From Candidatus Thorarchaeota archaeon (GTDB taxonomy: Archaea; Asgardarchaeota; Thorarchaeia; Thorarchaeales; Thorarchaeaceae), in the NCBI GenBank assembly GCA_008080745.1, contig SHMX01000003.1, forward strand, positions 1-32,000: 32,000 bases of DNA. The letters are read 5' to 3'. The notes under the pieces were generated by a model. It worked only from the letters and a program-made list of their open reading frames with translations. It was not told where the DNA came from and did no database searches. Made by a program: the position numbers and the translations under genes. Of this stretch, positions 11,801 to 31,564 are shown piece after piece. The stretch's first letter is position 1, and each line of letters starts with the position of its first letter.

Positions 11801-12150
11801 GTAGAAACAACCAAAGTCATCCCTAGTAGGACGTGAAGTCCAAGAGCTATTGTAGCAAAAGAAGATATTGTCATGTATGCAGCTATACATGCCATACCTG
11901 AACCAGCTAAAACAGCCACTGAACCAATATATCGATGATTAATTCGATTCAGTAATAGTCCAGCTAACATTACTCCTACCGAGAGCGACACTAACATCCG
12001 TATAGAGTAGTCACTGATAATAGGTACAGTAATGAAAAATGTAGCTAAAAGTACCGCAAGGGGTACAATAATTACCAATATTATGAACCTTAATACCGCT
12101 AGTAAGAGATCGGCCAACCTAGCGGCGCGTACTGTTCGATGGTCGTCCAT
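5863..12150 (-). CDS. Giant (2095 aa) polytopic membrane protein of unknown function
   Basis: Uninterrupted 6.3-kb ORF made almost entirely of hydrophobic helices (well over 40 by eye) with short loops. GAGG precedes the ATG. No catalytic motif recognised. Confidence 0.85.
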   Translation of the reverse strand: MDDHRTVRAARLADLLLAVLRFIILVIIVPLAVLLATFFITVPIISDYSIRMLVSLSVGVMLAGLLLNRINHRYIGSVAVLAGSGMACIAAYMTISSFATIALGLHVLLGMTLVVSTSLNRNENLTESTWLNIQKGLGILIVLTGPLFVYILTFNLFSPLHSVFLALITLSAYLLITQVVLRNKILGPIISVILSVGLGLILVEQSRVLYPMIDLLLYLSVFSMGTGLSLLATTRILRRFQLRVISQIPMTPPIVSNSSLVKEGNFEPHAETHTTKEDPLHIKMEAAEWIIDVELAQILAAFGLLLIALGTPTVFIFLTSQTSWGLVSQFIPLFAPLSIMISLLILMPFPVYLRLGGTLKRSFEGIIVRIFGTMVVITAALSLYLWTQFYLFPIALSISFSSMTFLAGITGLFKRVRRVFRTIWESFTNAFRRMKYWVKQHILISGTALNVIFTGTIAYLLYPLFLSFNHPFMGLAALSGVIFAGCGTLGVGALTKLKRRGQLLSIGSVCFLASLSALILWYLIGPIAMNIGEALPIALLLMLATSALQKNGVSLRKTSIPYLPGFVGGLWISWNIQATYLSIISPLVIIVALVLLPIPVAHPGYIRVGHILIGAGIRFGRWIHAGLILVGNKIKNGVVRIISVIRRGLGWIGSTIKNGFTKAGKVAYDAAVVAGQILLKFIFISWAVFSIFLCLSLGYGVLIPYLGMSFIPTAFVLGCCFFILYLGMLVKIDRPSPILTQASVVGLSIATGGLVYTYVALVNPISQILIASISSMGILLLGRNEFSESISTALPVIGYSLILAAVTNEFYLLVSPLMSTIHAILLTSIASGIGATGYRVIGLPKRVVGGMYIGLSAIPAVLFTYMITLDLILSGLVCILAPIPYAYSLYIRTLQTIGTTILVGIKQIVKFINRNAVPFFGAVFFGLTYYVASSTYTSLLQMGFDILIIGSLYMVLFTILWIPILHIKKEQYPSLLTGVFLLFVGTISFEIITYMNPPDPIVAILGWVCLVSLFSMLGSSEIHISGSVIPAFIATITASTVLGIYLLPIDILSKIILLSIETILLGAFFVPREKRIIVSYTLVITLTLAVIFWNLLSILRDPVLVGLGFLVFEMASLSMPKELRKSYTWWGFSILVGLGMYYLLQGFGIFAVLASVLVVSELIRITPSKDNDLSNLSIAFSLVRSSILAVGTGLLILPVSLVLSIEVAAFVFILMNLLSIWSELSDLILVGSINGVAILSSIAIFHFFYDILLAPFGISLYISAIPVLLILLDVSLVEKYHTIGWGLFGITLSTLVSLVWYLLGISSSPILFITTWTTTFLLTQIRPIGQDMKSGIVVQSFVVSSIIWLESIWISYSYPILPFTGVVAGAAGLSLLSLFGLYLHSVKWENFSHIWEIQTGITSILLAAYITGWEYTTLIPPANISGTLGVSLFLMSLLTTPVFLKYESQLRTHSNSSAGHMTLLPGIAGAALLTYSAGSYLEWNPIFGLFATSAVLCIGSGLYYLTLPEQPSWMPSALNLGFASSMAGLFWLARFSLEPVSYAIWTFAFWYILAIPSLIDPTIRFIEHSADFIRRNIFFFSSTIPPILGILIATALFSNTSGGLVLGLNIRSTIGFIATIYLITGILYLVANTILSLEDGIRLRTPSGVLFVFGLYQAILYFVIPDIFTDILSLGYQVGAVVVLSCVISYPVFSFNHLESMKKTAHWLISFTLIPTVSIGTLLFTTINIAYSIIAGLVVGLMVMAPLIPNQIQRIINVVKNLGSLLGQLLRDFTGTLRYLFDRFGYIMWGVFSSAFTITIAVFSFPFFSELVAMPPTGSLYVVPSISLPMSILGMMLLVIAIIRRQVKTSFGSVSLFLISIGLGATTASWLTEYGEFLLAGSLGILALSIAGLVVISEADKTQKWRTIFWVPIPAALGVILLDRLLIAAVTLDIQILVFTLSVLATSVLYTISTSLGYLPKKLGNPLWITKSISLGVIVYIASQLATFSLVASGYLTIVMASIVLFPVIGKDSKYVFFSLLFFGVTGFAYTSVFGIFLQSLMLALAVSFLFFALFIREKEKDNPNLVYLRLVVLIALVASIAIFGGTIALGLMVS

Positions 12151-16576: not shown

Positions 16577-18157
16577 ATGGGAGATTATACCGAACTAATG
16601 GGTGCTGCTGGGGCAGGTCATCTGGGGAATGTTGAACGATTGCTGAAAATGGGTCACGATCCAAATGCTAGAAGATTGTCAGGGAGAACACCGTTGATGT
16701 ATGCTGTGTTTAGTGGTTCAGTTCCAGTTGTGAAACGTCTGATTGAAGCTGGAGCGGACATTGATACTCAAGACAACGACGGATGGACTGCATTAATGGT
16801 TGCAATTGACCAGGGATATGAAGAAGTGGCGAAGATTCTCATTGAATTAGGTGCTGATGTAGACCGATCAACAAAAAGAAATCAGTCTCCACTCATGTTA
16901 GCTGCTGGAAGAAAACAACTTGATTTAGCTCGGTATATTCTCCAAAGTGGAGCAAATCCTCATCATGTAAGAGTAGATGGTTTCACGGTTTTGATGTCAG
17001 CCTGTCAAGGCAATCTCCTGCAACTAGTCCAAGATCTTATTGGAAAATACCAATGTGAGATAAATGCCACCGCAAATGATGGATGGAATGTCTTATCTTA
17101 TGCTCTTCAGTATGCAAGTGATGATTTGGTCATATATCTGATACAGAACGGAGCTAAGCCAAACTGGAATCACCCTAGCCAAGAAGAATTGATTACTGGA
17201 ATCATAAAGAGTCAGAAAACCAATCTCATCAGACTCATGCTTGAAAATGGAGCGGACATTGATGCGAAATTTGACAGGGGTTGGACACCACTGATGATTG
17301 CCGCTAGATTTGGAGATGAAGATATGGTCAAACTATTTCTTGACCATGATGTGGATATAAACGCAAGAACAGAGGAGGGATACACAGCACTCATGATTGC
17401 AGCGGAATTTGAAAGACCCCAATCAATAGATTTACTTCTTGAATATGGAGCAGATTTCAGAATAATAAGTGATACAGGATATACATGTCTAATGGCGGCT
17501 TCAATGGGTGGAATGAAAGAGTTTGTGCAATTTCTGATTGATAAAGGAGAAGATGTGAACCAAAGAAATCATGTGGATTGGACAGCACTCTTTTGTGCAG
17601 CAAAGATGGGAAATCGGGATGTCTTAGATCCTCTAATAGAAGCTGGTGCGAAAATTGACTTGAAGGATACAGATGGACAAACTCCTCTCTTCATAGCAAT
17701 AATGTACGATAAAGTGGAGTTTGCACTACGATTGATTGAAATCGGTGCGGATGTTAATATTATAGATAATGATGGTTGGTCACCACTAATTGCTGCCGCA
17801 TCACATGGTCAGCATGAGGTGTGCAACAATCTGATAGAGAAGGGAGCAGATACAAAACATCGAAGACCTAATGGGTATGGATTGTTTCTGGCAGCATCAA
17901 CAGGAGGTTTGACTAGTCTTGTCAAACGAGCACTCGAAGAGGGCAGTGAAATCAATGAAACAGATGAAGAACAGATTTCTGCGCTCATATATGCTGCAGA
18001 GAACGGTAACCTTGACACTGTGAAATTTCTGATTGAGAATGGTGCAGATCCAAATCTTACAGATGGAAATGGTCATACGGCATTAGAATGTGCCCGAGCT
18101 ACAAGAGAAAATGCAGTAGCTGAGTTCTTAGAAGGATTAGAGAGCAGACCAGATTAG
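16577..18157 (+). CDS. Ankyrin-repeat protein (15 full 33-aa repeats plus a partial C-cap)
   Basis: Recurrent G-x-T-[PA]-L-M-x-A...G...L[IL]xxGAD[IV][ND] units counted by hand; GGAGG RBS. Confidence 0.95.
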   Translation: MGDYTELMGAAGAGHLGNVERLLKMGHDPNARRLSGRTPLMYAVFSGSVPVVKRLIEAGADIDTQDNDGWTALMVAIDQGYEEVAKILIELGADVDRSTKRNQSPLMLAAGRKQLDLARYILQSGANPHHVRVDGFTVLMSACQGNLLQLVQDLIGKYQCEINATANDGWNVLSYALQYASDDLVIYLIQNGAKPNWNHPSQEELITGIIKSQKTNLIRLMLENGADIDAKFDRGWTPLMIAARFGDEDMVKLFLDHDVDINARTEEGYTALMIAAEFERPQSIDLLLEYGADFRIISDTGYTCLMAASMGGMKEFVQFLIDKGEDVNQRNHVDWTALFCAAKMGNRDVLDPLIEAGAKIDLKDTDGQTPLFIAIMYDKVEFALRLIEIGADVNIIDNDGWSPLIAAASHGQHEVCNNLIEKGADTKHRRPNGYGLFLAASTGGLTSLVKRALEEGSEINETDEEQISALIYAAENGNLDTVKFLIENGADPNLTDGNGHTALECARATRENAVAEFLEGLESRPD

Positions 18158-18500: not shown

Positions 18501-20027
18501 TCAGCCGAGCAAAAACGTAGCCGCTTCTACAGCATAATCCAACAAGATCCCAGGCATAATAAACAGAATAAGAACAGCTATGCTAGAAATTATGACCGCA
18601 ATCATTGGGATTCGGGGCAGATTCAGTTCATTAGCAGAATCGTCAGTACTCTTAGTGGAATGATCTCCATCCATGTACATCACTTTCAAGACACGAAGGT
18701 AATAACCCAGAGAGAAGACAGAATTTAGGAGAGCAATCAGAGCTAACCACCACATTCCTACTTCAACTGCACTCTGAAATAATATCAACTTTGACCAAAA
18801 TCCAGCAGTCAGGGGCATCCCAGCTAATGATAGAATAAGGACCGAAAAAGAAGCTGCTGCCATAGGAGCTTTTTTGCTAAGACCAATCAGATGATCATAT
18901 GTGATTTGCTTTCCAAGAACCACTGCCATGGACCAAATGAGAATGAAGCTACCAGTCTTCATTATTGCATGAATGAAAGCGTGAAAGAGAGCCGCTGCGG
19001 TTCCCAACTCGGTCCCTACCGCCATTCCAATTAATAGATACCCCATCATCGCGATACTGGAGTATGCTAACATTCTCATGATGTTTTTCTCAGCAAGTGC
19101 GAACAAGTTACCAATTATCATGGTCAATATTGAAACGATGACTAAGAGCGGCATCCATTCGATTCGAGCTGCAAACATTCCAACCATCAGAATCTGAATG
19201 AGTGCTGCAATACCTGCCTTCTTTGTAGCACCAGCAAGGTAAGAAGTGACACTGCCATCTGCTGTACTATAAGTATCAGGCACCCACATCCAACCAGGAA
19301 ACACGCCAATCTTAAACCCGAATGCAATGATGAACGTAATCAGAGCTAAAATGATAGTGTATGCCGCAGCAGGTGATGTTGCAGATTCCAACCAGATGGT
19401 GCTAATAGATGCTCCGACGGCAGATAACGACGTAACACCAGTGACACCAATAATGATTGCAATTCCAAATATCAGGAAGGTAGTTGAGAGTAGACCCATT
19501 ACGAAATATTTTGTTGCCCCATCTACAGCTCCTCGATGAGGACCAAGGGCTGCCAGTATATACGTTGGAGTTGACATCAATTCCCATGCTATGAAAAGAG
19601 CAACAAGATCCGTAGCCATTACAACCCATATAGCTCCTGCAAAGGACATTAACAAGAGAAAGTTGTAAGGCCCCTTATCACCTCCAAAAAGGGTAGAAGA
19701 CATTAGGACAAAAACAGCTACGACAAGAATCATGATGATAAAGAAATCTGACATGGGATTCCGGACAAAGAGACCACCAAAGGAACTTCCATAAAGTGTA
19801 GAATCAAAAACTAACATCCAAACTCCAGAAGTGATAACCCCAATAAAACTTAGCAAGAGAGGATTCCTTTTCATCCCCACTAATAGAATCAAGAGGGAAA
19901 AGCCGACCAGATTGAGAGCTGGCAGAGATCCGATCCATTCTACAGGAATGACTTGAAGTGCAATATCCCGAAGAGGAGCCAAGGCAAGTCTAAGTGAGTC
20001 TAAAATAGTTGATATTTGTATCATCAA
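18501..20027 (-). CDS. nuoN: Complex I-like antiporter subunit N
   Basis: FIAWELMSTPTY, KYFVMG, GFKIGVFPG..WVPDTY, RMLAYSSIA, GFWSKL and YYLRVLKVMY. Confidence 0.9.
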   Translation of the reverse strand: MMIQISTILDSLRLALAPLRDIALQVIPVEWIGSLPALNLVGFSLLILLVGMKRNPLLLSFIGVITSGVWMLVFDSTLYGSSFGGLFVRNPMSDFFIIMILVVAVFVLMSSTLFGGDKGPYNFLLLMSFAGAIWVVMATDLVALFIAWELMSTPTYILAALGPHRGAVDGATKYFVMGLLSTTFLIFGIAIIIGVTGVTSLSAVGASISTIWLESATSPAAAYTIILALITFIIAFGFKIGVFPGWMWVPDTYSTADGSVTSYLAGATKKAGIAALIQILMVGMFAARIEWMPLLVIVSILTMIIGNLFALAEKNIMRMLAYSSIAMMGYLLIGMAVGTELGTAAALFHAFIHAIMKTGSFILIWSMAVVLGKQITYDHLIGLSKKAPMAAASFSVLILSLAGMPLTAGFWSKLILFQSAVEVGMWWLALIALLNSVFSLGYYLRVLKVMYMDGDHSTKSTDDSANELNLPRIPMIAVIISSIAVLILFIMPGILLDYAVEAATFLLG

Positions 20028-21541
20028 GGTACACCTCCAACAATGAAGTCTGTTGACGTTCGTATAAGATCTAAAATAAGATCAGGCCAGACTCCAAGAA
20101 GAATCACGGGAATCAACATGATAATAGGAGCTATAAGGTCTGACCACGGAGCATCAACAACATCCTTCTCAGGGTCCGGATCACTGAAAACGATTCGATT
20201 TAGTGTCCAGAGTAAATATCCAACCGTGAGAAAAATACCAAAGGCGATCACTGGAGCCCATATGTAGACCACTACAGCTCCAAATAATATCAATGCCTCT
20301 GCTACAAAACCGCTCAGGCCTGGAAGACCAAAGGCAGCAAAAGATGCTAGTATCAAGACCGTTGACATCTTAGGAGCCCTTTCCATTAACCCATGAATCT
20401 CTGGAATCTCCCGGGTTCCTGATGCATGCTTGAGTTGTCCAGCCATGATAAACATCACAGAGATTATCACGCCATGAGATACCATCATGAATACAGCCCC
20501 TTGAATAGCCAAGCTGGTGCCTACCGCAACTCCAAGAAGGACCCATGCCATGTGATTGATGGAAGTATAGGCAACCATTGATTTCATGTCGGTCTGAGCC
20601 AATGCTGTAAAGGCTGCATAGATACAAGTGAATATCGCAAGAATAGCAAAGGGAATACTTAGTCTTACAAAAGCGTCAGGAATAAGCCAAAGACCCAATC
20701 GAATGAAACCATATCCACCCATTTTCAAAAGAATGCCTGCAAGAATAACTGAACCAGGCGTGGGGGCTTTCACATGAGCCCATGGAAGCCAGTTGTGCAA
20801 TGGAAACACTGGGAGTTTCACGCCAGCACCCATAAAAATAGCGAGCGCGAATCCGATCTGAATATCTGCTGGTAGCCCCATCTCTCTAAGTAATAGCATG
20901 TTGAATGTATTGGGAGTTGATACAAAGAAGAGAACGAAGAATCCAACTAGCATCACTGCGGAACCAAGATGAGTATAGATGAAGAATTTGACCGCTGCGT
21001 GTTCACTGCCTTCTTCACCCCAACGACCGATGATGAAAAACATTGGTATCAGAACTAGCTCCCAGAATATGAAGAATCCAATCAAATCCAGTGACATGAA
21101 TACCCCTAAAAGTCCGGATTGGAGTAGGAGTAAGAGTGCATAATACAGTCCTTTTGATTTGTTAATGTGATTCGAACTGATTGTTGCGATAAACACAACT
21201 AGATTAGCGAGGATAACCATTGCTACAGAAATTCCATCAACACCAAGATAAATCTGAAATGTGATATCTGAGCTACCAGTAGATATAGTTGCGAAAGTAT
21301 ACTCCCATAGAAATTGCATTCCAGCAAAAGAGTCGCCTTCAGTGTAGGTGGTGTTGATTGTTAAGGCGAGGATAAAAGCTAAAACGAGTTCTATGAAGGT
21401 AATGATAAGAGTGATGAAACGTGACCCTCTCGACCCGGCGATATAAGCGATGATTGTACCCAACAAGGGTAGAAATACCATTAATGGGAGTATATCATAT
21501 GGTAAAAGGGCTAAGATGTCTTGAGCTAGATCCAGTTGCAT
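20024..21541 (-). CDS. nuoM: Complex I-like antiporter subunit M
   Basis: GVDGIS, FFIFWELVL, VKLPVFPLHNWLPWAHVKAPTPGSVILAGILLKMGGYG, SHG and GFVAE. Confidence 0.92.
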   Translation of the reverse strand: MQLDLAQDILALLPYDILPLMVFLPLLGTIIAYIAGSRGSRFITLIITFIELVLAFILALTINTTYTEGDSFAGMQFLWEYTFATISTGSSDITFQIYLGVDGISVAMVILANLVVFIATISSNHINKSKGLYYALLLLLQSGLLGVFMSLDLIGFFIFWELVLIPMFFIIGRWGEEGSEHAAVKFFIYTHLGSAVMLVGFFVLFFVSTPNTFNMLLLREMGLPADIQIGFALAIFMGAGVKLPVFPLHNWLPWAHVKAPTPGSVILAGILLKMGGYGFIRLGLWLIPDAFVRLSIPFAILAIFTCIYAAFTALAQTDMKSMVAYTSINHMAWVLLGVAVGTSLAIQGAVFMMVSHGVIISVMFIMAGQLKHASGTREIPEIHGLMERAPKMSTVLILASFAAFGLPGLSGFVAEALILFGAVVVYIWAPVIAFGIFLTVGYLLWTLNRIVFSDPDPEKDVVDAPWSDLIAPIIMLIPVILLGVWPDLILDLIRTSTDFIVGGVP

Positions 21542-23737
21542 TTAGATTACCCCCAGCCAAATTAGTGCAATAATCGCCATCAACCCCACACCAAAAATAA
21601 TCACCGAAACATAATCATTGATCCTACCCGTTTGGGCATGGAGACTGACTTCGGAGGCATCAATACTTCTAGAGGAAACACCCTCGGCAAATCCATCAAC
21701 TACATTATCATCAAACCAGCGAATTCGCCTAGATAATCCTATAGCCAGATCTGCTGAACGAAAGTCAATTCCATCTATAATACGATTGTCAATCTTTTCC
21801 CTCCACCAACTGGCAAAATTGAGGAATTTGTTCAGAATCCAATAATATCCCTCATTGATATACCAACGATGTTTCAAGAAATCGTAGATCTTTCTTTTGA
21901 TGCCCTTTTCTGGAATGATAGTGTTGCCCTTTTCAGCCCCTTTAATGTAGATGAGATATGCGGGAAATCCACCAATAGCTAACGCACCTAATGTAATTGT
22001 AAATGGAATCAGACCAGGTAAGGTCAGCTTCACCAATAACATTTCGACCATCGTATCTGACCAGAGAGATAGTGTAAGTGCACCTTCCTCCAATAGTATC
22101 CCCTGAACAAATGGATATATTGCAAATGCAATGATAGTAAATGCAGCAAGTATGTAAAGAGGAATCATCATAGCTGGACCAGGATCATGAGGTGCTTTAT
22201 GGCTCTCTTCATGAGTTTCTTGTGAGTGAGATGCATCAGTATCTTCAAACTTTGATGATCCGTAGAAGGTCATTCCCATTAGCCGTAAACTGTAGAAAAT
22301 GGTACATGCTGCTGCAATAACAGCAAATGAAAAGAGAATCCAACCAATTGGCTCATGCAGTGCTAGCTCATAAGTGTATTCGATAATCGAGTCCTTAGAC
22401 CAAAATCCAGAGAAGGGAGGGATTCCAGCTAACGCTAGAACGCCAATCCACATAACAATGAAGGTCTTCCGCATATGTTTTTTGAGACCTCCCATCTTCG
22501 TCATGTATTTGGTGTGTAAGGCATGAATCACCCCTCCTGATGCCAAGAATAGTAACGCTTTGAATGCCCCGTGACTGATTACGTGAAGAATACTTGATAG
22601 GTAGGCATGTTCGTAATGGGCCAATACACCGCCCACTCCAATTGCCAACATCATGTATCCCAATTGACTAAGGGTTGAGAATGCAAGCACCTGTTTCAAT
22701 TCATTAGAAACCATACCCATTGTAGCTGTCATTAGTGCAGTAATCGCTCCAACGATGGCCACTATTGTGAAAAAGGGTATTGCAGCCTCAAATCCAACGA
22801 TCTGTAAAGGATTGAAGAACGACTCCGCATGACTTGAGCCAGCTGCATCCACCATGGTGACTAAAAATCGAGCACTGATGTAAACACCCGCTTTGACCAT
22901 TGTTGCAGCATGGATAAGTGCTGAAACTGCGGTAGGCCCTGCCATAGCCTCAGGGAGCCATATTTGTAGAGGAGCTTGACCAGATTTTCCGATTGCGCCC
23001 ATAAACAAGAGTAAGAAAGTTGGAACCAACATTCCAGTGGTGGCCATTGCACTCCACCAGTGCTGAGCATCATGGGACATACCAGTGAAGGAGAAAGTTC
23101 CAGTGAATACGAAGAGAAGTAGAATGCCAGCGAGCATGAAGGCATCACCAATACGAGTTACAATGAATGCCTTTGTTCCACAATGGGTATTGTATTCTCC
23201 TTCAGTGTCAAATTGTAAGAGGGGGTTATTATATTCAACATCAGTTGGGTCTGTTTCAGGGGGATTCCGCTTATCATTCCAAAAGCCAATGAGGCCATAA
23301 GAACAGAAGCCCATAATTTCCCAGCCGATAAAAGCAATCAGCAGACTATCACTCAGAACCAATGTGAGCATTCCTCCACCGAAAGCCAACATCAAGAAGA
23401 AGAATCGATCTCGGTCCTCCTCATGGGCCATGTATTCAGTACTATAAACGTAAATCAAAAAACAGAGGGTGCTTGCAAGTACCCCCATAATGATAGATAA
23501 TGGGTCTAATAGTATTGTGAAGTTCAGATTTAAAGAATCAATCCAAATCCAAGAAGTAATAGTAGCGGGGTTGTTAATCTCAAACAATAGAGACCAACAA
23601 AGAATCATTGATAGGCCCATGAATAACGATGGAGTCCAATCCCTTAGTTTCTCGTTGAATCTTCCAATCACTGGTACTAATAGAGAGCCCGCTAAGGGTA
23701 GAACAATGATGAGATAGTATGGTAGTCCAAATAGCAT
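21542..23737 (-). CDS. nuoL: Complex I-like antiporter subunit L
   Basis: DPLS, YSTEYM, FIGWEIMGFCSYGLIGFW, GKSGQAPLQIWLPEAMAGPTAVSALIHAATMVKAG, HGAFKALLFL, GFWSKD, plus the C-terminal lateral helix and final TM. Confidence 0.93.
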   Translation of the reverse strand: MLFGLPYYLIIVLPLAGSLLVPVIGRFNEKLRDWTPSLFMGLSMILCWSLLFEINNPATITSWIWIDSLNLNFTILLDPLSIIMGVLASTLCFLIYVYSTEYMAHEEDRDRFFFLMLAFGGGMLTLVLSDSLLIAFIGWEIMGFCSYGLIGFWNDKRNPPETDPTDVEYNNPLLQFDTEGEYNTHCGTKAFIVTRIGDAFMLAGILLLFVFTGTFSFTGMSHDAQHWWSAMATTGMLVPTFLLLFMGAIGKSGQAPLQIWLPEAMAGPTAVSALIHAATMVKAGVYISARFLVTMVDAAGSSHAESFFNPLQIVGFEAAIPFFTIVAIVGAITALMTATMGMVSNELKQVLAFSTLSQLGYMMLAIGVGGVLAHYEHAYLSSILHVISHGAFKALLFLASGGVIHALHTKYMTKMGGLKKHMRKTFIVMWIGVLALAGIPPFSGFWSKDSIIEYTYELALHEPIGWILFSFAVIAAACTIFYSLRLMGMTFYGSSKFEDTDASHSQETHEESHKAPHDPGPAMMIPLYILAAFTIIAFAIYPFVQGILLEEGALTLSLWSDTMVEMLLVKLTLPGLIPFTITLGALAIGGFPAYLIYIKGAEKGNTIIPEKGIKRKIYDFLKHRWYINEGYYWILNKFLNFASWWREKIDNRIIDGIDFRSADLAIGLSRRIRWFDDNVVDGFAEGVSSRSIDASEVSLHAQTGRINDYVSVIIFGVGLMAIIALIWLGVI

Positions 23738-23748
23738 CTTATTTCACC

Positions 23749-25257
23749 TCATGGAATAAGCCCACTCACTCCCTCTAACCCCGCAAATATGATATCCACT
23801 GCGATACCGGGAAAGATTCCAAAGAACACGATCAACACAGCAAGTACCACCATGGGAATGACCATCGATTGTGGTGCCTCTGAAGTGTCTTCAAGCTCTC
23901 GTGGATGAGGGCCAAGAAAGACCTTCCAAAGAAACCGGAGCATATACCCAGCACTTACAATTGAACTAGTAACTGCCAAGATACTTAGAAGAATAAATTC
24001 AGGTCGTAGAATAATTGCGCCGGATATCTGTGCAGCATCGAAGCCGCCTAGAAACATCATCCACTCACTAGCAAAACCAGAAAGGGGTGGACTTCCAGCT
24101 ATACTTAGGGCACCAATTGCTGCTGTAAATGCAGTAAGAGGCATTTTATTTGAGAGACCCCCCATTTTCGTGATATCACGTAAACCAGTCTGATGAATGA
24201 CTGCTCCGGCGGTCATAAACAGCAACCCCTTTGAGAAAGCATGATTGATAAGGTGAAATAGCCCCCCAGTGACACCTACGGTTGTATAGACACCGAGAGA
24301 GAAGAGTATGTATCCCATCTGAGAAACTGAAGAATATGCTAGGAGTCGTTTGATATCTATCTGTGCCAGTGCCATAAAACCGCCATAGAACATCGTAAGG
24401 ACACCAATAGCTGCAATCCAGAATGCTAGAGCAGCGGCAGCAGGTCCGAGTAAAATAGTACCAAATCTCACTAATGCATAAGCACCAGTTTCAATCATAG
24501 CTCCAGATAGAAGAACCGAGATGGGAGTTGGAGCTTCGGCATGAACAGGGGGTAACCACCAATGTATTGGAAAGACTGCCATCTTTACCAAGAAACCAGC
24601 AGCCATTAGAATAAAGATAATCTTGAGTAAATCAGTAACAGTGGAGCCCATTAATGTATCTTGGATAGTTTGTAATTCAAATGATCCCGTAAGCATGTAA
24701 AGTAGTCCAAATCCAACAAGGATACAGAGAGCACCTGATTGAGTATAAAGCCAAAATTTCAGTGCAGTTCTCTTTCTTGTTTCCGGGAGACCCCAGAATA
24801 AAATGAGGAAGTAACTTGGAACCAGCATTATCTCCCATGCAATAAAGAATTCTATGAGATTCGTTGCAAGAACAACCCATTGCATACCCATAAGGAAGAA
24901 GAGTTGATTTGCAAAGAAAGTTGGTCTGTTCTTGGTGTGTTCAGTATATCCTACAGCATATACTACTGAGAGAAAACCAAGCACAACAATAGCAAAAACT
25001 ATGGGAAATGAGACACCATCAAGAAACAGTCCGAATTCTCCAAATACTTCAGACCATGTAGCTGACTCTTTCACAACACTTCTTTCAACTATAATTCGGT
25101 AGAAGGGGGGGAGCATGAATACTAAGGATAAAAATGAAAATCCTACCGCAACCTTTCCTGCTGAGTGTTCAAGCTTAGACTTTAAGAGGTAGATTAGTAA
25201 AGCACCTATGAATAGAACGGCCAATGAACTTGCCATGAAGGGCATTTCGATTTGCAT
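23749..25257 (-). CDS. Additional (fourth) antiporter-like subunit, NuoM/MrpD/HyfB family
   Basis: LDGVS, FFIAWEIM, VKMAVFPIHWWLPPVHAEAPTPISVLLSG, KRLLAYSSVSQMGY, NHAFSKGLLF and GFASEW. Preferred start is ATG 25257 (TAATG overlap with the nuoI stop, AGGAGG RBS); the ORF track gives 25281. Confidence 0.88.
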   Translation of the reverse strand: MQIEMPFMASSLAVLFIGALLIYLLKSKLEHSAGKVAVGFSFLSLVFMLPPFYRIIVERSVVKESATWSEVFGEFGLFLDGVSFPIVFAIVVLGFLSVVYAVGYTEHTKNRPTFFANQLFFLMGMQWVVLATNLIEFFIAWEIMLVPSYFLILFWGLPETRKRTALKFWLYTQSGALCILVGFGLLYMLTGSFELQTIQDTLMGSTVTDLLKIIFILMAAGFLVKMAVFPIHWWLPPVHAEAPTPISVLLSGAMIETGAYALVRFGTILLGPAAAALAFWIAAIGVLTMFYGGFMALAQIDIKRLLAYSSVSQMGYILFSLGVYTTVGVTGGLFHLINHAFSKGLLFMTAGAVIHQTGLRDITKMGGLSNKMPLTAFTAAIGALSIAGSPPLSGFASEWMMFLGGFDAAQISGAIILRPEFILLSILAVTSSIVSAGYMLRFLWKVFLGPHPRELEDTSEAPQSMVIPMVVLAVLIVFFGIFPGIAVDIIFAGLEGVSGLIP

Positions 25258-25688
25258 TACCTGAACCTCCTTCCTCGCCATTCTAACGGTTCTCTATCTA
25301 ATGTCGTAATTTCATCCGGTCCATAAATCAGGTCTTCTCTGTTTTCAGCACTGATATCGACAACTTTAGTATGATAAAGCGCATTGAATCTACAGGCCTG
25401 AACACATAAACCGCAGAAAATGCATCGTGTATAGTCAAAATAGAGAGCGGCATCCTTGTTGTATTTTTGATCCATAACATCAATCCTGATTGCTACGACC
25501 GGACAGACACGTACACATTGTTTGCACGCTGTGCAATTTTCTCGCACATGTATATGTCTTCCACGGGTACGTTCAGGGTATTCTCGATCTTCAAAAGGAT
25601 AAAAGTATGTGAAAGGTCTCTTGAAAATCTGTCTGAACACATGCCTTAGAATTCTGAAGATATCGCCTAGTGTTGAGAAGAATCCCAT
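25257..25688 (-). CDS. nuoI: Complex I-like subunit I (2x[4Fe-4S])
   Basis: T..YPFE...RGRH, CTACKQCVRVCP and CIFCGLCVQACR. Confidence 0.92.
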   Translation of the reverse strand: MGFFSTLGDIFRILRHVFRQIFKRPFTYFYPFEDREYPERTRGRHIHVRENCTACKQCVRVCPVVAIRIDVMDQKYNKDAALYFDYTRCIFCGLCVQACRFNALYHTKVVDISAENREDLIYGPDEITTLDREPLEWRGRRFR

Positions 25689-25693
25689 TCATA

Positions 25694-26824
25694 TCAACCT
25701 CCAATCATCAGTAACCCAGCTAATCCGGGCAGATACACAATAGCCAGCATGGCAAGTACGACATTGAGTATCGAAAGTGGCAGTAGATATTTCCAACAAT
25801 ATTCTACAATCTGATCAGGTCTCAATCTATAGAAAGAAGATGTGACCACGATATAAAGGAAGAACACTATCAAGAACTTGATAATGAAGTTCATAGCAGG
25901 GGGTAGGAACGGAAGTCCGTGAAAGCCTCCAAGGAATAATGCAACCATCATAGCACTGTAAAGCATCTGTTCTGCAAATTCAGCAAAATACGTCATGGTG
26001 AAATAGATTCCTGAGAATTCAGTTCGCCATCCAAAAATGATTTCTGAATCAGCCACAGGGGAATCAAAAGGAAAAGTACCTACAGATGCAATTGAGCTTA
26101 CCATAAATGTAGCTAAATTGATGGGTAACAACACAACAAACCAAACATTACTCTGGGCTTGAGCAATGCCCATCAAACTAAGAGAACCAGCCAGAAGTGT
26201 CGGACCAACTGAAGAGATAATCATTGGAATCTCTGCTGCGAACTGATTGTTGGCTGCTCTGAATCCACCTATTAGAGAATACTTGGAACCTGAAACCCAT
26301 CCTGCAAGAAGAGCAATCACTGGTACAGCAGTTAAGAATGCAAAAATCAGAACCAAGCTTACAGATAGATCAGCAATGAACCAAGAGGGAGACCAAGGTA
26401 TGAAAGCAAAGGGTAAGAGCACAATTACCAAGAGAAGGCATGGAAGAAATCTAAACATCCAGCGTTTTGCTTTATCAGGAATTATGGTCTCCTTTGAAAC
26501 TAGTTTAATCGCATCTGCGAAGAGTTGAAAACCACCATATTTGCCAATATGAGTAGGACCTCTCCGATCTTGTATTCTGCCCCACATCTTTCGTGTGAAC
26601 CAGACTGCAAAGATAATACCTAGCACTATGAATACCAAGCCTGGGAATATGATAGCTCTGAAGAGGAACCAGAAGTTTCCAACCACTGCTGCCCATACAA
26701 ACACAAAGATACCCCAGACGCCATTAAATATCCAGACTATGATTCCATGCAACCACATGATTATATCGTATAACCAAGTAGGTATTCCAGCCAACCATTG
26801 GAAGAAATCTATCTGCAACGTCAC
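25694..26824 (-). CDS. nuoH: Complex I-like subunit H with long N-terminal extension
   Basis: RKMWGRIQDRRGP, GGFQLFADAIKLVSKE, KYSLIGGFRA, PFD.P.A..E...G..TEFSG and R.RPDQ...CWK. GTG start with a GGAGG RBS. Confidence 0.92.
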   Translation of the reverse strand: MTLQIDFFQWLAGIPTWLYDIIMWLHGIIVWIFNGVWGIFVFVWAAVVGNFWFLFRAIIFPGLVFIVLGIIFAVWFTRKMWGRIQDRRGPTHIGKYGGFQLFADAIKLVSKETIIPDKAKRWMFRFLPCLLLVIVLLPFAFIPWSPSWFIADLSVSLVLIFAFLTAVPVIALLAGWVSGSKYSLIGGFRAANNQFAAEIPMIISSVGPTLLAGSLSLMGIAQAQSNVWFVVLLPINLATFMVSSIASVGTFPFDSPVADSEIIFGWRTEFSGIYFTMTYFAEFAEQMLYSAMMVALFLGGFHGLPFLPPAMNFIIKFLIVFFLYIVVTSSFYRLRPDQIVEYCWKYLLPLSILNVVLAMLAIVYLPGLAGLLMIGG

Positions 26825-26832
26825 GCTTCCTC

Positions 26833-27966
26833 CTATCTATCCCACCATCCAGGATATGGATCTAGACTGCCAAATATCACAATGAAATCAGCAAACTTGT
26901 TTCCGGGGACAAGATGCTTCAATGAATAATACGAGTTGAAACAAGGACCGCGTATCTTTGCACGATAAGGGGTCTGTGCTTTATCCATAGTTCTAAGATA
27001 GAGTGATGTGACTCCTCTTGTTCCCTCCACACGTCCATAAGCTTCTCCCTCAGGAAGTCGATTAACTTTGCCACGAGCTTTTCTTTCGTAAATTTCACCC
27101 TCGGGAACTTGGGGTAACAATTGACGAATTATATCTACTGAGGTCTCTATTTCTAAAAATCTCTGAACCATCCTGTCATAAGCATCACTCTCACCAGGAT
27201 GATCTTCATTGGTATAGGTGGGAACTTCCCAGTCAGCCATATCATAAGTGAGATTTTCATCTGGAGAATCCTTTCTGAGATCCATTGGAACACCACAGGC
27301 CCGGATATTTGGTCCACTGATTCCCCAACGCAATCCTTGGTTTGCATCAAATCGACCTATTCCTTTAGTTCGTACTTTGAATGTGGGACTTCTCAGTAGC
27401 ATATCACGAAACTTGGGCATCCGCTCTTCCAGACGTTGAATGGCTCTATCTAACTTGGACAGAAATTTATCTGTAAAATCGTACTTCACTCCCCCCGGAG
27501 TATTATAGGATACAGCATGTCTAGACCCAGTCAATTCTTCAAAAGCATCAAGGAAGAACTCTCTGTCAACCCAAGGCCAAAGTAGCATTGTAAATAATCC
27601 TAGTTCTGCTGCGAATTGCCCCCACCAGAACTGGAGACTATGAATTCGACTCGCTTCCATCATAATTGTTCGCATGATTTTAGCACGGTCTGGTACATCT
27701 ATTCCAGCAATTTTCTCAACTGCTGATACATACGGATATTCAGCAAGAAATGCCTCAAGCATGCAAAGCCGTTCCATTATTAGTGCGCCCTGCCGGAAAT
27801 CTCTAAACTCTAAACACTTCTCAGCAGATCGATGGAAATAACCAGCATTGGGATCACATTCCACTATGTAATCTCCTACTAGCGTGAGTTTTGCTGCCCA
27901 GCCATGCGCTGAAACGTGCTGAGGACCAAACCAGATTTCAGTTGCCTCTTCAAGAACGTCTTTCAC
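26833..27966 (-). CDS. nuoD: Complex I-like subunit D (49-kDa family; not a NiFe catalytic subunit)
   Basis: FGPQHVSAHG, GYFHRSAEK, EASRIHS, EELTGSR, GEAYGRVEGTRG and PYRAKIRGP. Both Ni-binding CxxC pairs are incomplete (RLCMLE; DPYPGWWDR). Confidence 0.9.
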   Translation of the reverse strand: MKDVLEEATEIWFGPQHVSAHGWAAKLTLVGDYIVECDPNAGYFHRSAEKCLEFRDFRQGALIMERLCMLEAFLAEYPYVSAVEKIAGIDVPDRAKIMRTIMMEASRIHSLQFWWGQFAAELGLFTMLLWPWVDREFFLDAFEELTGSRHAVSYNTPGGVKYDFTDKFLSKLDRAIQRLEERMPKFRDMLLRSPTFKVRTKGIGRFDANQGLRWGISGPNIRACGVPMDLRKDSPDENLTYDMADWEVPTYTNEDHPGESDAYDRMVQRFLEIETSVDIIRQLLPQVPEGEIYERKARGKVNRLPEGEAYGRVEGTRGVTSLYLRTMDKAQTPYRAKIRGPCFNSYYSLKHLVPGNKFADFIVIFGSLDPYPGWWDR

Positions 27967-28493
27967 TCGTCCTCACCTCCCTCTGAGGGTCCGGGACGTC
28001 GTTGAGTTAAGCCAGATTCATGGATTCTACTTCTATCAATCTCAAAACTTTTCCTCAAAGGGAATTCTCCCTTCAATTCATCTGGAAGTAGCAATAATCT
28101 TAGGTCTGGATGCCCGGAAAAATTAATTCCAAACATCTCATGAGTTTCTCTTTCATGCCATTCCATGCCGGGAAATATATCAGCTATAGTAGGGACTTCT
28201 GGAGAATCAGCTGGCAGCTTGAGAACTATCTTACAAAGAACTCTACTATTTCGAGACCAGAAATAATAGATAATTTCAAACCCATCTTCTTCAAAATCAA
28301 TACCTATTAGATTTTCAGGAAAGATATCCGAATACAGTCTATCTAGCATCTCAACAAGTTCTCTAAGCTGTTCCGGAGTAATACGAATTTGGACGGTTTC
28401 TTTTCCGATGGCTCGAGTTTTGATGGTATCATCTACCTGTTTCAATTCGTGAATCAGTAAGGCTCCAGATTTTCCTTGTTCTGAATCAGACAC
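27963..28493 (-). CDS. nuoC: Complex I-like subunit C (30-kDa family)
   Basis: PTIADIFPGMEWHERETHEMFGINFSGHPDLRLLLLP...FPLRKSF. Confidence 0.92.
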   Translation of the reverse strand: MSDSEQGKSGALLIHELKQVDDTIKTRAIGKETVQIRITPEQLRELVEMLDRLYSDIFPENLIGIDFEEDGFEIIYYFWSRNSRVLCKIVLKLPADSPEVPTIADIFPGMEWHERETHEMFGINFSGHPDLRLLLLPDELKGEFPLRKSFEIDRSRIHESGLTQRRPGPSEGGEDE

Positions 28494-28806
28494 CTGTAAT
28501 CTCCTCCTGTCTTACTGGTTGTCCAAGATCTACAGTTCCATATCTACGATGATACATTAGCATGAGGACCATTGCAAGAGCAGTATGTGCAGCTGCTATA
28601 GCTATGATAATGATAGTTAGACCTTGACCTGTGAAGGTGAAAGGAGAATTGTAGAGAGCAAGAGCTACCAATGCGATGGTCACTCCATTGCCAATTATTT
28701 CTGCCCCAATGAGTACTCTGATGAGATTTCTTTTCACCATCATCCCGTATACTCCAAGGCCAATTAGTATGAAAGCCAAGACCAAATACCACGAAAGTGG
28801 AATCAT
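28486..28806 (-). CDS. nuoK: Complex I-like subunit K
   Basis: Three TM helices, GLGVYG...KRNLIRVLIGAEII.NG...GQ...IAAA. Confidence 0.9.
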   Translation of the reverse strand: MIPLSWYLVLAFILIGLGVYGMMVKRNLIRVLIGAEIIGNGVTIALVALALYNSPFTFTGQGLTIIIIAIAAAHTALAMVLMLMYHRRYGTVDLGQPVRQEEITGV

Positions 28807-29414
28807 TGTTCTTCCTCCTGGGTTTCAGTATATGCTGGATGTGTTTCTGCCTCGATACCAAATTCACCTTTTATAGGTTCGAGACGTTCAGCCTTCTCCA
28901 TCTTCATAATCACAACGGCACCCACCAAAGCAGTGAGAATTATTAGCGCCGTCATTTGCACATATATTCCATGAGACCCCCATAGCCATTTAGCTAGCTC
29001 CTCTAGATTTTGGGAGAGATTGATATTTTCGCTAACAAAGCTTTCAGGCCATGGGAACAAGAGGGCTAAAATTCCAGAGAGAATCATCACAACTGATGTA
29101 ATCAGAACACCAATACGTTTTGCCCGGGATGTTGGAAATACTTCAAGAGTGCTATCCTGTGCACGTGGGAGCAATAACACACCAAAGATAATCAACGCAC
29201 TTATTCCACCAGTATAGACAGCAATTTGCATTCCAGCAATAAATGGTGCTTCTAGAAGCAGATAGAAGCCAGCGACAACAGAAGCCATCATGCCAAAGAA
29301 AAATGCTGCATAGACAATATCTTCGTGTTCTAAAGCAAGATATGCAAGTATTAGTACTAATCCAGCTAGCAGAATGAATTCAACCTGTTCAAAGAGGGTT
29401 TCAAAACCTTGCAT
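28803..29414 (-). CDS. nuoJ: Complex I-like subunit J
   Basis: IVYAAFFF...VAGFYLLLEAPFIAGMQIAVYTGGISALIIFGVLL, and C-terminal WLW...LTALVGAVVI. Confidence 0.9.
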   Translation of the reverse strand: MQGFETLFEQVEFILLAGLVLILAYLALEHEDIVYAAFFFGMMASVVAGFYLLLEAPFIAGMQIAVYTGGISALIIFGVLLLPRAQDSTLEVFPTSRAKRIGVLITSVVMILSGILALLFPWPESFVSENINLSQNLEELAKWLWGSHGIYVQMTALIILTALVGAVVIMKMEKAERLEPIKGEFGIEAETHPAYTETQEEEQ

Positions 29415-29417
29415 TCT

Positions 29418-29858
29418 CTAAGCCTCCTCATGTGCCGAAGATGATTTACTCGATGCCCTAGCCTTCTGATACAGTTCTACCGTTTCAGAACCTGAAAGGT
29501 ATGTTTCGGGAAGTCTTTTGATAACATACCATATTCCCACCATAAAAATTCCAGTGAAAAGAATGAATTGCCAGACAGTAATTTCTGTGAATCGCAGAGA
29601 AGATGATGATAGTAACCATAGAAATGCTCCTAGAACATCAACGACAAGAAAGAGTATCGTATAGGTCAAATAGTTATAAGGAAAGGAAACTCGTGCCGGG
29701 CCAATGGGTTCCTCACCACACTCGTAAGTAGAGGTCTTTTCTGAATTCTGAAGCACATGTGGTCGTAATACCCAAGATGCAAAGAGCATTACAATTACAA
29801 GGACAGCGGCAAGCATAGCCCAGATTAGAACTGGGATGAAGTCGATGAAGAGCCTCAT
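29418..29858 (-). CDS. nuoA: Complex I-like subunit A
   Basis: KTSTYECGEEPIG.A...Y..Y.ILFLVVDV. Preferred start is ATG 29858 (GGTGG RBS); the ORF track gives GTG 29876. Confidence 0.9.
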   Translation of the reverse strand: MRLFIDFIPVLIWAMLAAVLVIVMLFASWVLRPHVLQNSEKTSTYECGEEPIGPARVSFPYNYLTYTILFLVVDVLGAFLWLLSSSSLRFTEITVWQFILFTGIFMVGIWYVIKRLPETYLSGSETVELYQKARASSKSSSAHEEA

Positions 29859-29899
29859 TTTTTCCACCAAGTGCACACATTTCTCATATGACCAAGACT

Positions 29900-30005: not shown

Positions 30006-30043
30006 AACGTTGTTAGAAACAATCATTAACGTAGGTGTCTATT

Positions 30044-30397
30044 ATGGAAAAAGATAGCCATGTTGGAGCATTTCATTACATCGCACTGATTCTAGGAATC
30101 CTTACTCTCACAATATATGCATGGTGGATTTTTTCTGTAGGTAGCTGGGTGCTTAATTTTATGGAAACCCTGTTTATTGCAGCTGGAATTTCCATGATCC
30201 CTATCACACTCCTGATAGGCAAGTCAGATACTCGGTCTGGTCGAGTACTATTCACCATAATCTCTGCTGCTCTTGGAGGTGTTCACGGTTATCTGGTCTT
30301 GGCTTTCTTTCCAACTACTGGTGCAATGATGTTTCTCCTTTTTGGTTTCGGACTTCTAATGACTGCAGCTTCTATAACATGGATACAAAAGGGATAA
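30044..30397 (+). CDS. Small four-TM membrane protein, unknown function
   Basis: Four hydrophobic segments separated by GKSDTRSGR-type loops, with its own promoter and RBS. The ORF track starts at GTG 30035. Confidence 0.8.
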   Translation: MEKDSHVGAFHYIALILGILTLTIYAWWIFSVGSWVLNFMETLFIAAGISMIPITLLIGKSDTRSGRVLFTIISAALGGVHGYLVLAFFPTTGAMMFLLFGFGLLMTAASITWIQKG

Positions 30398-30407
30398 GCT
30401 AAAAGTC

Positions 30408-31412
30408 CTAGCTATCATCTTCTAATGGTGAGAACTGCACTATTGCCCAAGTGATATCGGTTGAAATAACTGGAAGACCATCAATCCCAATATCAAAGAT
30501 CTCGCTTGAAACAGTTGGTTCTACCGACGAAACATCTTCAAACAGGATTTGAGTTTCAAGCAATGGTGAAGACATGGATAGTAATCGGTTCTTGAATCCG
30601 AATTCCATATTGTGTTCTATGAGAACATCTGCATTGGCATCTCCATTATCTGGAAAGAAAAATGTAAGAAAGTAAGCTACACCACCAAGACATCTTACCA
30701 ATTCATTGAGAAATTCTTCACTACTGGTTATATTGGTCAATCCCATATTGGTCGTAATGACCTCTACTGATTTTTCTTTGAAAGGCATCTTTCTAGCATC
30801 AAATGCAATAAGGCTTACTTTCTCATAGATACCGAAATGCTCCAATCTATCCTTATTTCTCTGAAGAATACTTGGACTGATATCACTCAAGATGACAGGA
30901 TTTTCCAATTCAGAGAATAATTCAGCGAATCCACCCATTCCAGATGCAATATCAATAATGACGCCTGTTTTATCAGAGAGTAATTTTTGTAGCTGTGTTT
31001 TCTTTTCTTGATATGCTTGAGTATAAGAACTAGTATATAGGTCCCTCACGGCTTCAGCTCTAATTTCTCTTGCAGTATCATAGTCTCCTCGCTCATCAAG
31101 AATCATTGAATGTAAGAGTTTGTCTGCGGGATTCAAATTATCCAAATCAGTTTGCATGAGTTTTCGTTCATATTCAGGATTGCTACGCAATGCCTTTGAT
31201 AGATTACTTTGCACAACTTTCCAAAAATCTTCATCATTTGATGCATCTAAAAGAAAAATAGCAATACCATTCTTTACAAAATAAGATTTATGACATGCGA
31301 TACAAGAAACCTCAGCATCAATAATCCGATGATCTGTTTCTTTTTGAATATCCCATGCTAAAGAATCATGACAGATAGGACAATAAAGCAAATTTTGAAT
31401 AGATTTTAGCAT
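30408..31412 (-). CDS. Class I SAM methyltransferase with N-terminal Trm112-like Zn-knuckle
   Basis: LLYCPICHDSL...CIACHKSYFVKNGIAIFL, motif I IIDIASGMG, LSDISP, and FDARKMPFKEKSV. Preferred start is ATG 31412; the ORF track gives 31502. Confidence 0.85.
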   Translation of the reverse strand: MLKSIQNLLYCPICHDSLAWDIQKETDHRIIDAEVSCIACHKSYFVKNGIAIFLLDASNDEDFWKVVQSNLSKALRSNPEYERKLMQTDLDNLNPADKLLHSMILDERGDYDTAREIRAEAVRDLYTSSYTQAYQEKKTQLQKLLSDKTGVIIDIASGMGGFAELFSELENPVILSDISPSILQRNKDRLEHFGIYEKVSLIAFDARKMPFKEKSVEVITTNMGLTNITSSEEFLNELVRCLGGVAYFLTFFFPDNGDANADVLIEHNMEFGFKNRLLSMSSPLLETQILFEDVSSVEPTVSSEIFDIGIDGLPVISTDITWAIVQFSPLEDDS

Positions 31413-31564
31413 GAATATCAAAGATTGAAGATATTCGAAATCTAAAATAGATTTACAACTAAGCAAAATAAAGAAAATAGCCCATTCTATTTTAGAAAAC
31501 AATTCAGTAATTCACTCGTAAAGATTAAGAGGGCTCGTTAATAATTCTAATTTGAGATTTGAGA

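Follow-up and report, generated by a model that had tools for sequence, protein, structure and literature searches.

A complex I-like operon in a genome of Candidatus Thorarchaeota (assembly GCA_008080745.1, contig SHMX01000003.1) contains no gene for the subunit NuoB, and the question raised by this locus is where that subunit comes from, if the complex has one at all. The window analysed here, 32,000 nucleotides in length, is the first 32 kb of contig 3 (C3) of the genome and begins at the contig end. A sequence-only reading of the window had noted the missing nuoB and proposed that the subunit is either encoded separately or dispensed with in a new type of complex. We find a NuoB as the C-terminal part of a flavoprotein encoded upstream of the operon on the same contig. 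This domain is likely the missing NuoB of the operon complex, occupying its canonical position on NuoD, NuoC and NuoH. The complex is probably a headless (NuoEFG-less) complex I-like pump with eleven core subunits and one extra antiporter-like subunit, here called M', and is in this respect "2M"-like.

The genome, hereafter G000, is a metagenome bin of 3.16 Mb in 19 contigs that is 98% complete with an estimated contamination of 4.8%. Genes were called from an open reading frame listing together with Pfam and NCBIfam scans, and NuoB was sought with a six-frame PF01058 (Oxidored_q6) search of the whole genome. These data agree with the earlier observation of eleven tightly coupled genes, which run on the minus strand from 29876 to 18501 in the order nuoA-J-K-C-D-H-I-M'-L-M-N; neighbouring genes are 0-11 nt apart or overlap by 4-25 nt. 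The gene nuoA (29418..29876, minus strand; 152 aa; Pfam Oxidored_q4, 1.1e-18) is followed after 3 nt by nuoJ (28803..29414, minus strand; 203 aa; Pfam Oxidored_q3, 1.8e-22, and the NCBIfam NuoJ models), as it is in 12 relatives. The search found no NuoB-like sequence inside 18501-29876. The absence of NuoEFG- and Fpo-type input genes, also noted earlier, extends beyond the window, as neither NuoF (Complex1_51K) nor FrhB/FpoF (FrhB_FdhB_C) has a match anywhere in G000. On this count the system does not fit the pattern of a 14-subunit NADH:quinone oxidoreductase or of an F420H2 dehydrogenase (Fpo).

The B-less order is conserved among relatives. The family sample consists of 24 genomes besides G000, of which 17 carry a NuoD orthologue of the window type (73-91% identity) and 7 do not. 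Gene order was read at 12 fetched related loci from 10 genera, and in every one of these independently assembled loci the order A-J-K-C-D-H-I-M'-L-M-N recurs without nuoB and with nuoA directly before nuoJ. An assembly error at 29414-29418, about which the sequence-only reading had been cautious, is therefore excluded. Metagenomic contigs with a NuoD about 50% identical to that of the window likewise show J-K-C-D-H-I-M'-L-M-N without B. The sister family, represented by G025, has the order J-K-B-C-D-H-I-M'-L-M-N; because it keeps a free nuoB between nuoK and nuoC, B must have been lost from that site within the thorarchaeal lineage. In the window the same site is closed, with nuoC (27963..28493, minus strand; 176 aa; Pfam Complex1_30kDa, 8.2e-30) directly after nuoK (28486..28806, minus strand; 106 aa; Pfam Oxidored_q2, 1.7e-19). 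A different arrangement was seen in G039, from another family of the phylum, where a nuoA-nuoC-nuoD trio (L037:12044-14025) lacks nuoB between its first two genes and is not followed by H or I, and a NuoB of the tandem-cysteine (CC) type is encoded separately at G039:C2:114050-114475.

The whole-genome profile search recommended in the earlier reading located B outside the operon. Five proteins of G000 match PF01058, three of them, 257-304 aa long, being small subunits of hydrogenases; one of these three lies in the window at 2446-3219. The best match of the genome (114 bits) is a NuoB-like protein of 191 aa on contig 11 with the CxxC-type motif SCNGCDIE. The fifth match is the C-terminal domain of a flavoprotein::NuoB fusion of 646 aa, whose gene is outside the window, shares the strand of the operon and lies 6.7 kb upstream of nuoA (G000:C3:36560-38500, minus strand; L007:4560-6500). 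Residues 1-450 of the fusion hold the FAD_binding_4 and FAD-oxidase_C domains, residues 451-501 amphipathic linker helices, and residues from about 485 to 646 a complete complex-I-type NuoB. It is the only PF01058 protein of the genome with the tandem-cysteine N2 motifs GLGCC, GQC and PGCPP, which are invariant across all fusion orthologues, so that the four cysteine ligands of N2, including the tandem CC, are kept. The B domain clears the NCBIfam NuoB cutoffs with 180 bits against 116, and among solved structures it matches NdhK, PSST and Nqo6 (about 1e-42, about 147 bits) better than MbsJ (2e-29, 105 bits) or MbhJ (3e-26, 95 bits). The full set of eleven core subunits is thus encoded, ten in the operon and B in the fusion.

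Databases name the fusion "NuoB" or "hypothetical", and among the 150 best hits listed from 1.84 billion representative proteins only one 50%-identity cluster matches it over its full length. A full-text literature search found no published description of a FAD-oxidase::NuoB fusion or of a B-less thorarchaeal operon. The closest free NuoB (P0118, 59% identity) lies on a 2.6-kb metagenomic contig, in a nuoA-nuoB pair that is divergent from nuoJ and followed by a B12/radical S-adenosylmethionine gene; this is suggestive of an intermediate arrangement, on a contig too short to use. A further protein with a NuoB domain, P0116 (533 aa), was set aside as irrelevant, being a eukaryotic gene on a 38-Mb record.

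The distribution of the fusion follows that of the operon. All 17 relatives with the B-less cluster have it (74-90% identity), and all seven family members that do not have the cluster lack it; these counts are descriptive and carry no statistical test because the sampled genomes are kin. Fifteen of the 17 copies are intact, that of G023 is divided between the ends of two contigs, of which the nuo contig carries the C-terminus, and that of G006 is broken by a gap. The latter genome was considered as an exception without the B domain and rejected, since a 100-N scaffold gap cuts the gene and its last 21 residues are present. The seven members without the operon have only a hydrogenase-type B, located beside a NiFe-type D, and genus g2, which is without the operon, has an unfused homologue of the flavoprotein (499-503 aa).

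Fusion and operon are also neighbours in most relatives. At 8 of the 10 related loci where the neighbourhood was read, the order is a divergent gene for a CCG protein, the fusion, a 155-aa protein with four transmembrane (TM) segments, a membrane protein of about 120 aa, and then nuoA-J-K and the rest of the operon; the fusion lies 1.0-1.8 kb from nuoA in these eight, mostly 1.0-1.4 kb. Of the ten loci, seven have the 120-aa protein on the opposite strand, between nuoA and the fusion unit, as traced by tblastn. Only G000 and G001, which share a genus, have an insertion of 5.5-7 kb between nuoA and the fusion, and G005 has a smaller one. A UbiE-like methyltransferase and a tetratricopeptide repeat (TPR) protein are encoded in the insertion of both G000 and G001, and a histidine kinase in that of G000. 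Ancestrally, the fusion gene would have stood just upstream of nuoA, and the insertion in the genus of G000 and G001 would have moved it away.

Sequence type and phylogeny pair the fused B with the NuoD of the window. Throughout the phylum a CxxC-type B always occurs with a NiFe-type D, and a CC-type B with a D without the NiFe ligands. Maximum-likelihood trees, built on 164 columns for B and 376 for D, share the same deep split between hydrogenase-type and complex-I-type sequences, with support of 100/99 and 100/100, respectively. In both trees the clades of thorarchaeal fusion B and window-type D are placed alike relative to G025, G033 and G035, with G013 basal and G000 and G001 as sisters. 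The phylogenetic comparison with the window NuoD called for in the earlier reading is therefore congruent for the fused B and not for the B of contig 11. The proposal that nuoB is encoded separately holds to the extent that a congruent B lies on the same contig, but this B is the C-terminal part of a flavoprotein fusion rather than a canonical stand-alone protein. With the same reservation, the case is essentially the split operon to which a congruent nuoB elsewhere had been expected to reduce it. The alternative of a complex working without any B is unsupported.

Structure prediction was applied to the fusion and to its contact with NuoD. The AlphaFold2 model of the fusion has a mean predicted local distance difference test (pLDDT) score of 85.5, and shows both domains folded, with values above 90 in the FAD domain, the linker helices at 451-501 and values of 50-79 in the B domain. 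Co-folding, another of the checks proposed earlier, was run for NuoD with the fused B domain and gave a predicted interface that scored 0.75, whereas none of three controls exceeded 0.00; at least 97% of contacts recur between runs, and the pLDDT of the partner is 76 or higher. The mark used for such predictions is reached by 58 of 80 solved complexes and by 2 of 110 mismatched pairs, counts that are approximate with our own alignments. For a textbook pair of this kind, the predicted interface shows likeness to the canonical interface and not binding.

Pfam assigns the N-terminal part of the fusion to FAD_binding_4 (1.6e-40) and FAD-oxidase_C (1.6e-9), and its fold is nearest that of mouse LDHD (Foldseek, TM-score 0.85, target-normalised), followed by LctD and alkyl-dihydroxyacetone phosphate synthase. 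Identification as a D-lactate dehydrogenase was considered and ruled out as a claim of membership, with the HxGDGNxH and EHG motifs missing. An ESM Atlas feature search returned only generic FAD-oxidase clusters. The nearest homologues of the FAD domain (33-40% identity) are mostly proteins of 870-1030 aa in which it is fused to a 2x[4Fe-4S]+CCG (HdrD-like) module. This architecture fits the CCG protein beside the fusion (410 aa, TfrB/HdrD/GlpC-like, with 2x[4Fe-4S]), divergent and adjacent in 8 of 10 related loci, as the redox partner of the flavin domain. The earlier claim that the system has no electron-input module is probably wrong in spirit, since there are two candidates through which electrons could enter or leave, the fused FAD domain and the HdrD-like CCG protein. 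The N-terminus of one metagenomic homologue of the FAD domain, P0054 (867 aa, 40% identity), is joined to an NrfD/PsrC-type membrane subunit, which we take to be quinone-interacting; in this protein, too, the flavoprotein subfamily is hard-wired to a membrane module.

Beyond the fusion, L007:6673-11393 (G000:C3:38673-43393) encodes the CCG protein, a MenA-like UbiA prenyltransferase (417 aa), a polyprenyl synthase and a member of the geranylgeranyl-reductase family. These last three genes may provide a pathway to a prenylated carrier. A related association was observed on a Joint Genome Institute metagenome contig (L050:1-1826), where the genes for a partial HdrE/DsrM-like membrane protein and a 483-aa Fer4+CCG (HdrD/DsrK-like) protein immediately precede a J-K-C-D-H-I-M'-L-M-N cluster that has neither A nor B. 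The NuoD of this cluster shares 49% identity with that of the window.

NuoD (26833..27966, minus strand; 377 aa; Pfam Complex1_49kDa, 3e-63), aligned to 2fug_4 and 6u8y_L, has lost the NiFe ligands save Cys68, which is invariant. Its His21 is the equivalent of His38 in Thermus thermophilus Nqo4 and is kept. The best match of NuoD among solved structures is MbsL of the Pyrococcus furiosus membrane-bound sulfane sulfur reductase (MBS; 6u8y; 6e-58, full length), and its ERLCMLE motif resembles RICVPE of MBS, while its C-terminus, DPYPGWWDR, has no cysteine. The nearest relatives of NuoD are Asgard or metagenomic sequences at 47-50% identity, the next being at most 38% identical. NuoI (25257..25688, minus strand; 143 aa; Fer4 families and NCBIfam NuoI) keeps both CxxCxxCxxxC [4Fe-4S] motifs. 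NuoH (25694..26824, minus strand; 376 aa) matches Pfam NADHdh (3.1e-87) from residue 63, and ahead of this match it carries a Trp-rich N-terminal extension of about 50-60 aa, which might serve as a dock for the linker of the fusion.

Four subunits are antiporter-like. M' (23749..25281, minus strand; 510 aa; Pfam Proton_antipo_M, 8e-73) is of the NuoM/MrpD type and occupies the same place in all relatives. It is followed by nuoL (21542..23737, minus strand; 731 aa; NCBIfam NuoL, 3.3e-148), nuoM (20024..21541, minus strand; 505 aa; TIGR01972 NDH_I_M, 1.4e-131, above cutoff) and the last gene of the operon, nuoN (18501..20027, minus strand; 508 aa; Pfam Proton_antipo_M, 8e-55). The TM5 Glu and TM7 Lys are kept in all four, and M' also keeps the TM12 Lys and has Glu at the position of the TM8 Lys. 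The lateral helix of NuoL is elongated. Its amphipathic stretch from TM15 to the last TM helix measures about 106 aa, some 34 aa more than the approximately 72 aa in the other NuoL of the genome, a DNxxVDG motif recurs in this region at a spacing of about 26 aa, and the C-terminal TM anchor is present.

From these features a working model can be proposed. The operon would supply ten core subunits (A, J, K, C, D, H, I, L, M and N) and M', and the fusion would supply NuoB with the N2 [4Fe-4S] cluster in trans. If the B domain docks as in complex I, the flavin domain would come to lie at the membrane-proximal side of the peripheral arm, near the coupling site, and the HdrD-like 2x[4Fe-4S]/CCG protein is probably placed there too. 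The fused flavin domain probably attaches a new redox module to the pump. In the mode of working that seems most likely, reduced ferredoxin may donate electrons to the NuoI clusters, from where they would reach N2, although this is a weaker inference; a feed of ferredoxin into NuoI has been proposed for other headless complexes (PMC9723677, PMC6147122). N2 would then pass electrons to a lipophilic or HdrD-bound acceptor and drive ions through the four antiporter-like subunits, and the flavin/HdrD-like module would be a second point of electron entry or exit. Electrons could also take the reverse course, from a substrate through FAD and the CCG clusters to N2 and on to a carrier. The span between a 2-hydroxyacid and quinone would be too small, by textbook potentials, to pay for five ion channels. 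Only tentatively do we suggest that the fusion and the HdrD-like CCG protein make the pump a quinone-independent energy-converting oxidoreductase. In such an enzyme N2 would be the place where electrons are exchanged between ferredoxin, acting by way of NuoI, and a flavin-bound substrate or disulfide, acting by way of FAD and the CCG clusters, with five ion channels coupling.

Several observations weigh against the assignment of the fusion to the pump and against the model built on it. The FAD domain lacks the HxGDGNxH and EHG motifs of the aligned LDHD and LctD, with VTSKSGVTM and HAHSTG at the aligned positions, and the subfamily as a whole has GGxPYxxGxW in their place; in the LDHD and D2HGDH structures the two motifs form the metal triad and belong to the catalytic site. 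In all thorarchaeal NuoD orthologues Met69 replaces Tyr87 (T. thermophilus numbering), which in established complex I structures is a quinone ligand together with His38. No menaquinone head-group enzyme of those sought (MqnA/D, MenD and MqnC) scores above cutoff in G000, an absence that does not show the absence of a lipophilic carrier. Fusion and operon do not form one transcription unit, since in relatives a small gene on the opposite strand lies between them, and in G000 they are parted by 6.7 kb with the kinase, the TPR protein and the methyltransferase. Finally, the N-terminus of NuoB in solved complex I points to the membrane surface, away from the NuoI clusters, and a domain of 450 aa would have to be accommodated there.

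The explanation that best survives besides a fused NuoB of the pump is that the fusion works independently of it, as a membrane-associated dehydrogenase formed with the CCG protein and the 4-TM protein, its NuoB domain being a mere Fe-S relay. The operon complex would then be truly B-less and free of N2, for example a Mrp-like translocator or an enzyme with altered chemistry. The separate transcription units and the distance in the genus of G000 agree with such a division, as do the nearest FAD-domain homologues, which are joined to CCG/Fe-S or NrfD modules without complex I, and the metagenomic B-less clusters that show no B in view. We nevertheless regard it as improbable. The co-occurrence of fusion and operon is strict, their adjacency is conserved and the trees of B and D are congruent; the four N2 cysteines are kept, and the model puts the B domain on NuoD with high confidence. 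Furthermore, both NuoI clusters are retained and would lead nowhere without N2, and the sister family keeps a free B in its operon.

It is less probable still that the contig-11 protein is shared as the B subunit of the window complex, although it is the best PF01058 match of the genome, free-standing and of the usual size. It is encoded in a nuoA-B-C-D-H-I cluster (L006:2303-6436, minus strand) whose D has RICGICSATH and DPCFSC, and a CxxC-type B beside such a D identifies the pair as a true group 4 [NiFe] hydrogenase. The NuoD of the window and the fused B domain lack these motifs, with ERLCMLE and DPYPGWWDR in the former and CC in the latter. The contig-11 B and its D partner fall in the hydrogenase clade, split from the window D with 100/100 support, and this B is kept by family members without the window-type operon. 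It also already completes a set of its own with the genes nuoJ1-J2-K-L-M-N of contig 5 (L010:6657-12685, plus strand). By their gene content, contigs 11 and 5 together hold a second, complete complex I-like hydrogenase set, split over contigs, and sets of this kind have recently been described for other Asgard archaea. That the missing nuoB is an artefact, through mis-assembly, a deletion or a pseudogene, could be suspected in a 19-contig metagenome bin with some contamination and a window at a contig end, but it can be dismissed given the same A-J junction and order in 12 independent assemblies of 10 genera and in metagenomic contigs, and eleven frames that are all open and tightly coupled.

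Other features surround the operon. Divergent from nuoA is a hydrophobic small membrane protein of 120 aa (30035..30397, plus strand) with no Pfam or NCBIfam match, followed by a UbiE/MenG-like methyltransferase (30408..31502, minus strand; 364 aa) that matches Pfam Ubie_methyltran and the NCBIfam UbiE models, all under their cutoffs. Directly downstream of the operon, on the opposite strand, a 526-aa protein consists almost entirely of ankyrin repeats (16577-18157, plus strand). The largest open reading frame of the window, of 2095 aa, lies at 5863-12150 on the minus strand. A cluster of four genes on the minus strand (1169-5144) resembles a cytosolic group 3 (sulf)hydrogenase, with a Fer4_22 protein (4068-5144), a FAD/NAD-binding protein with a DHODB Fe-S domain (3219-4067), the PF01058 small subunit (2446-3219) and a NiFe large subunit (1169-2446). 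Five short contigs of G000, C14, C15, C17, C18 and C19 (2.4-14.6 kb), have a G+C content of 62-65% as opposed to 39-43% in the rest of the bin and are probably contamination. Of sequencing runs, only two marine-sediment metagenome runs of one study, which are probably the source of this DNA, are listed as containing the stretch, with no RNA run among them.

Complex I-like enzymes are thought to have evolved by the exchange of input modules on a conserved pump. The known modules, such as NuoEFG, FpoF, NdhS/ferredoxin and hydrogenase or formate dehydrogenase subunits, to our knowledge bind without a covalent link, at the far end of the peripheral arm. In Thorarchaeota, whose lineage is kin to the archaeal ancestor of eukaryotes, a flavoenzyme is covalently joined to the N2 subunit, by the coupling site. 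If the quinone-independent scheme were true, the complex I superfamily would gain a new class of input/output module, one that Asgard archaea have hard-wired through gene fusion. The fusion provides genetic evidence linking a GlcD/HdrD-type redox module to the pump and makes a direct coupling of the Fpo-like/HdrD kind, a long-standing idea, testable. Calls of "nuoB absent" in metabolic reconstructions of Thorarchaeia are wrong, because the subunit is hidden in the fusion, and the other "Nuo" set of the genome is a hydrogenase.

With the headless 11-subunit enzymes, the NDH-1 of cyanobacteria and chloroplasts and the Fpo-like complex of methanogens, the thorarchaeal complex shares the core set A, B, C, D, H, I, J, K, L, M and N without NuoEFG, a two-cluster NuoI as the likely site of ferredoxin entry, a tandem-cysteine N2 NuoB and the lateral helix of NuoL. 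It differs from them in that B is the C-terminal domain of a flavoprotein, in the order A-J-K-C-D-H-I-M'-L-M-N, in the fourth antiporter-like subunit and in Met for Tyr87. It also has no FpoF or NdhS-type partner, FrhB/FpoF being unmatched in the genome. The "2M" complex I of Nitrospira (Chadwick et al. 2018), according to PMC9040806, has a lateral-helix insertion, of a length similar to 26 aa, that accompanies a fourth pumping subunit. The two systems are alike in an extra NuoM-like subunit, a cluster without NuoEFG and a NuoL helix longer by about one subunit width. The thorarchaeal system is distinct from it in its archaeal host, in the placement of M' between nuoI and nuoL with Glu at the TM8 Lys, and in the fusion of NuoB to a flavoprotein. 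The likeness in gene content and helix length is likely convergence.

The closest functional idea in the literature appears to be the Fpo-like/HdrD coupling of Methanomassiliicoccales, a ferredoxin:heterodisulfide oxidoreductase that has been proposed (Lang et al. 2015 as cited in PMC6147122) and is itself unproven. In both systems a headless pump goes with a 2x[4Fe-4S]+CCG protein of the HdrD kind, in Thorarchaeota a candidate partner, and no obvious quinone pathway is seen. In Thorarchaeota, unlike there, a flavoprotein fused to NuoB makes the link a physical one in the genes themselves. Covalent joining of NuoB to another protein of the complex is itself familiar from NuoBC, NuoBCD and NuoCD fusions; B-C and B-C-D fusions have been reported in archaea (PMC11237513), and NCBIfam has a NuoB/C/D fusion model. 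In the known fusions it is the C-terminus of B that is joined, and to a neighbouring core subunit, whereas in the thorarchaeal fusion an enzyme domain foreign to complex I is joined to the N-terminus of B. The MBS of P. furiosus (6u8y) shares R-x-C-[VM]-x-E with the thorarchaeal NuoD, each retaining one former NiFe cysteine. Unlike MBS, which has DNCPPD, the thorarchaeal NuoD has no cysteine in its C-terminus (DPYPGWWDR), its B is complex-I-like and its NuoL has a lateral helix. Three traits set the thorarchaeal complex apart from every described member, namely the fusion of NuoB to a flavoprotein, the order of the genes and the pocket of NuoD.

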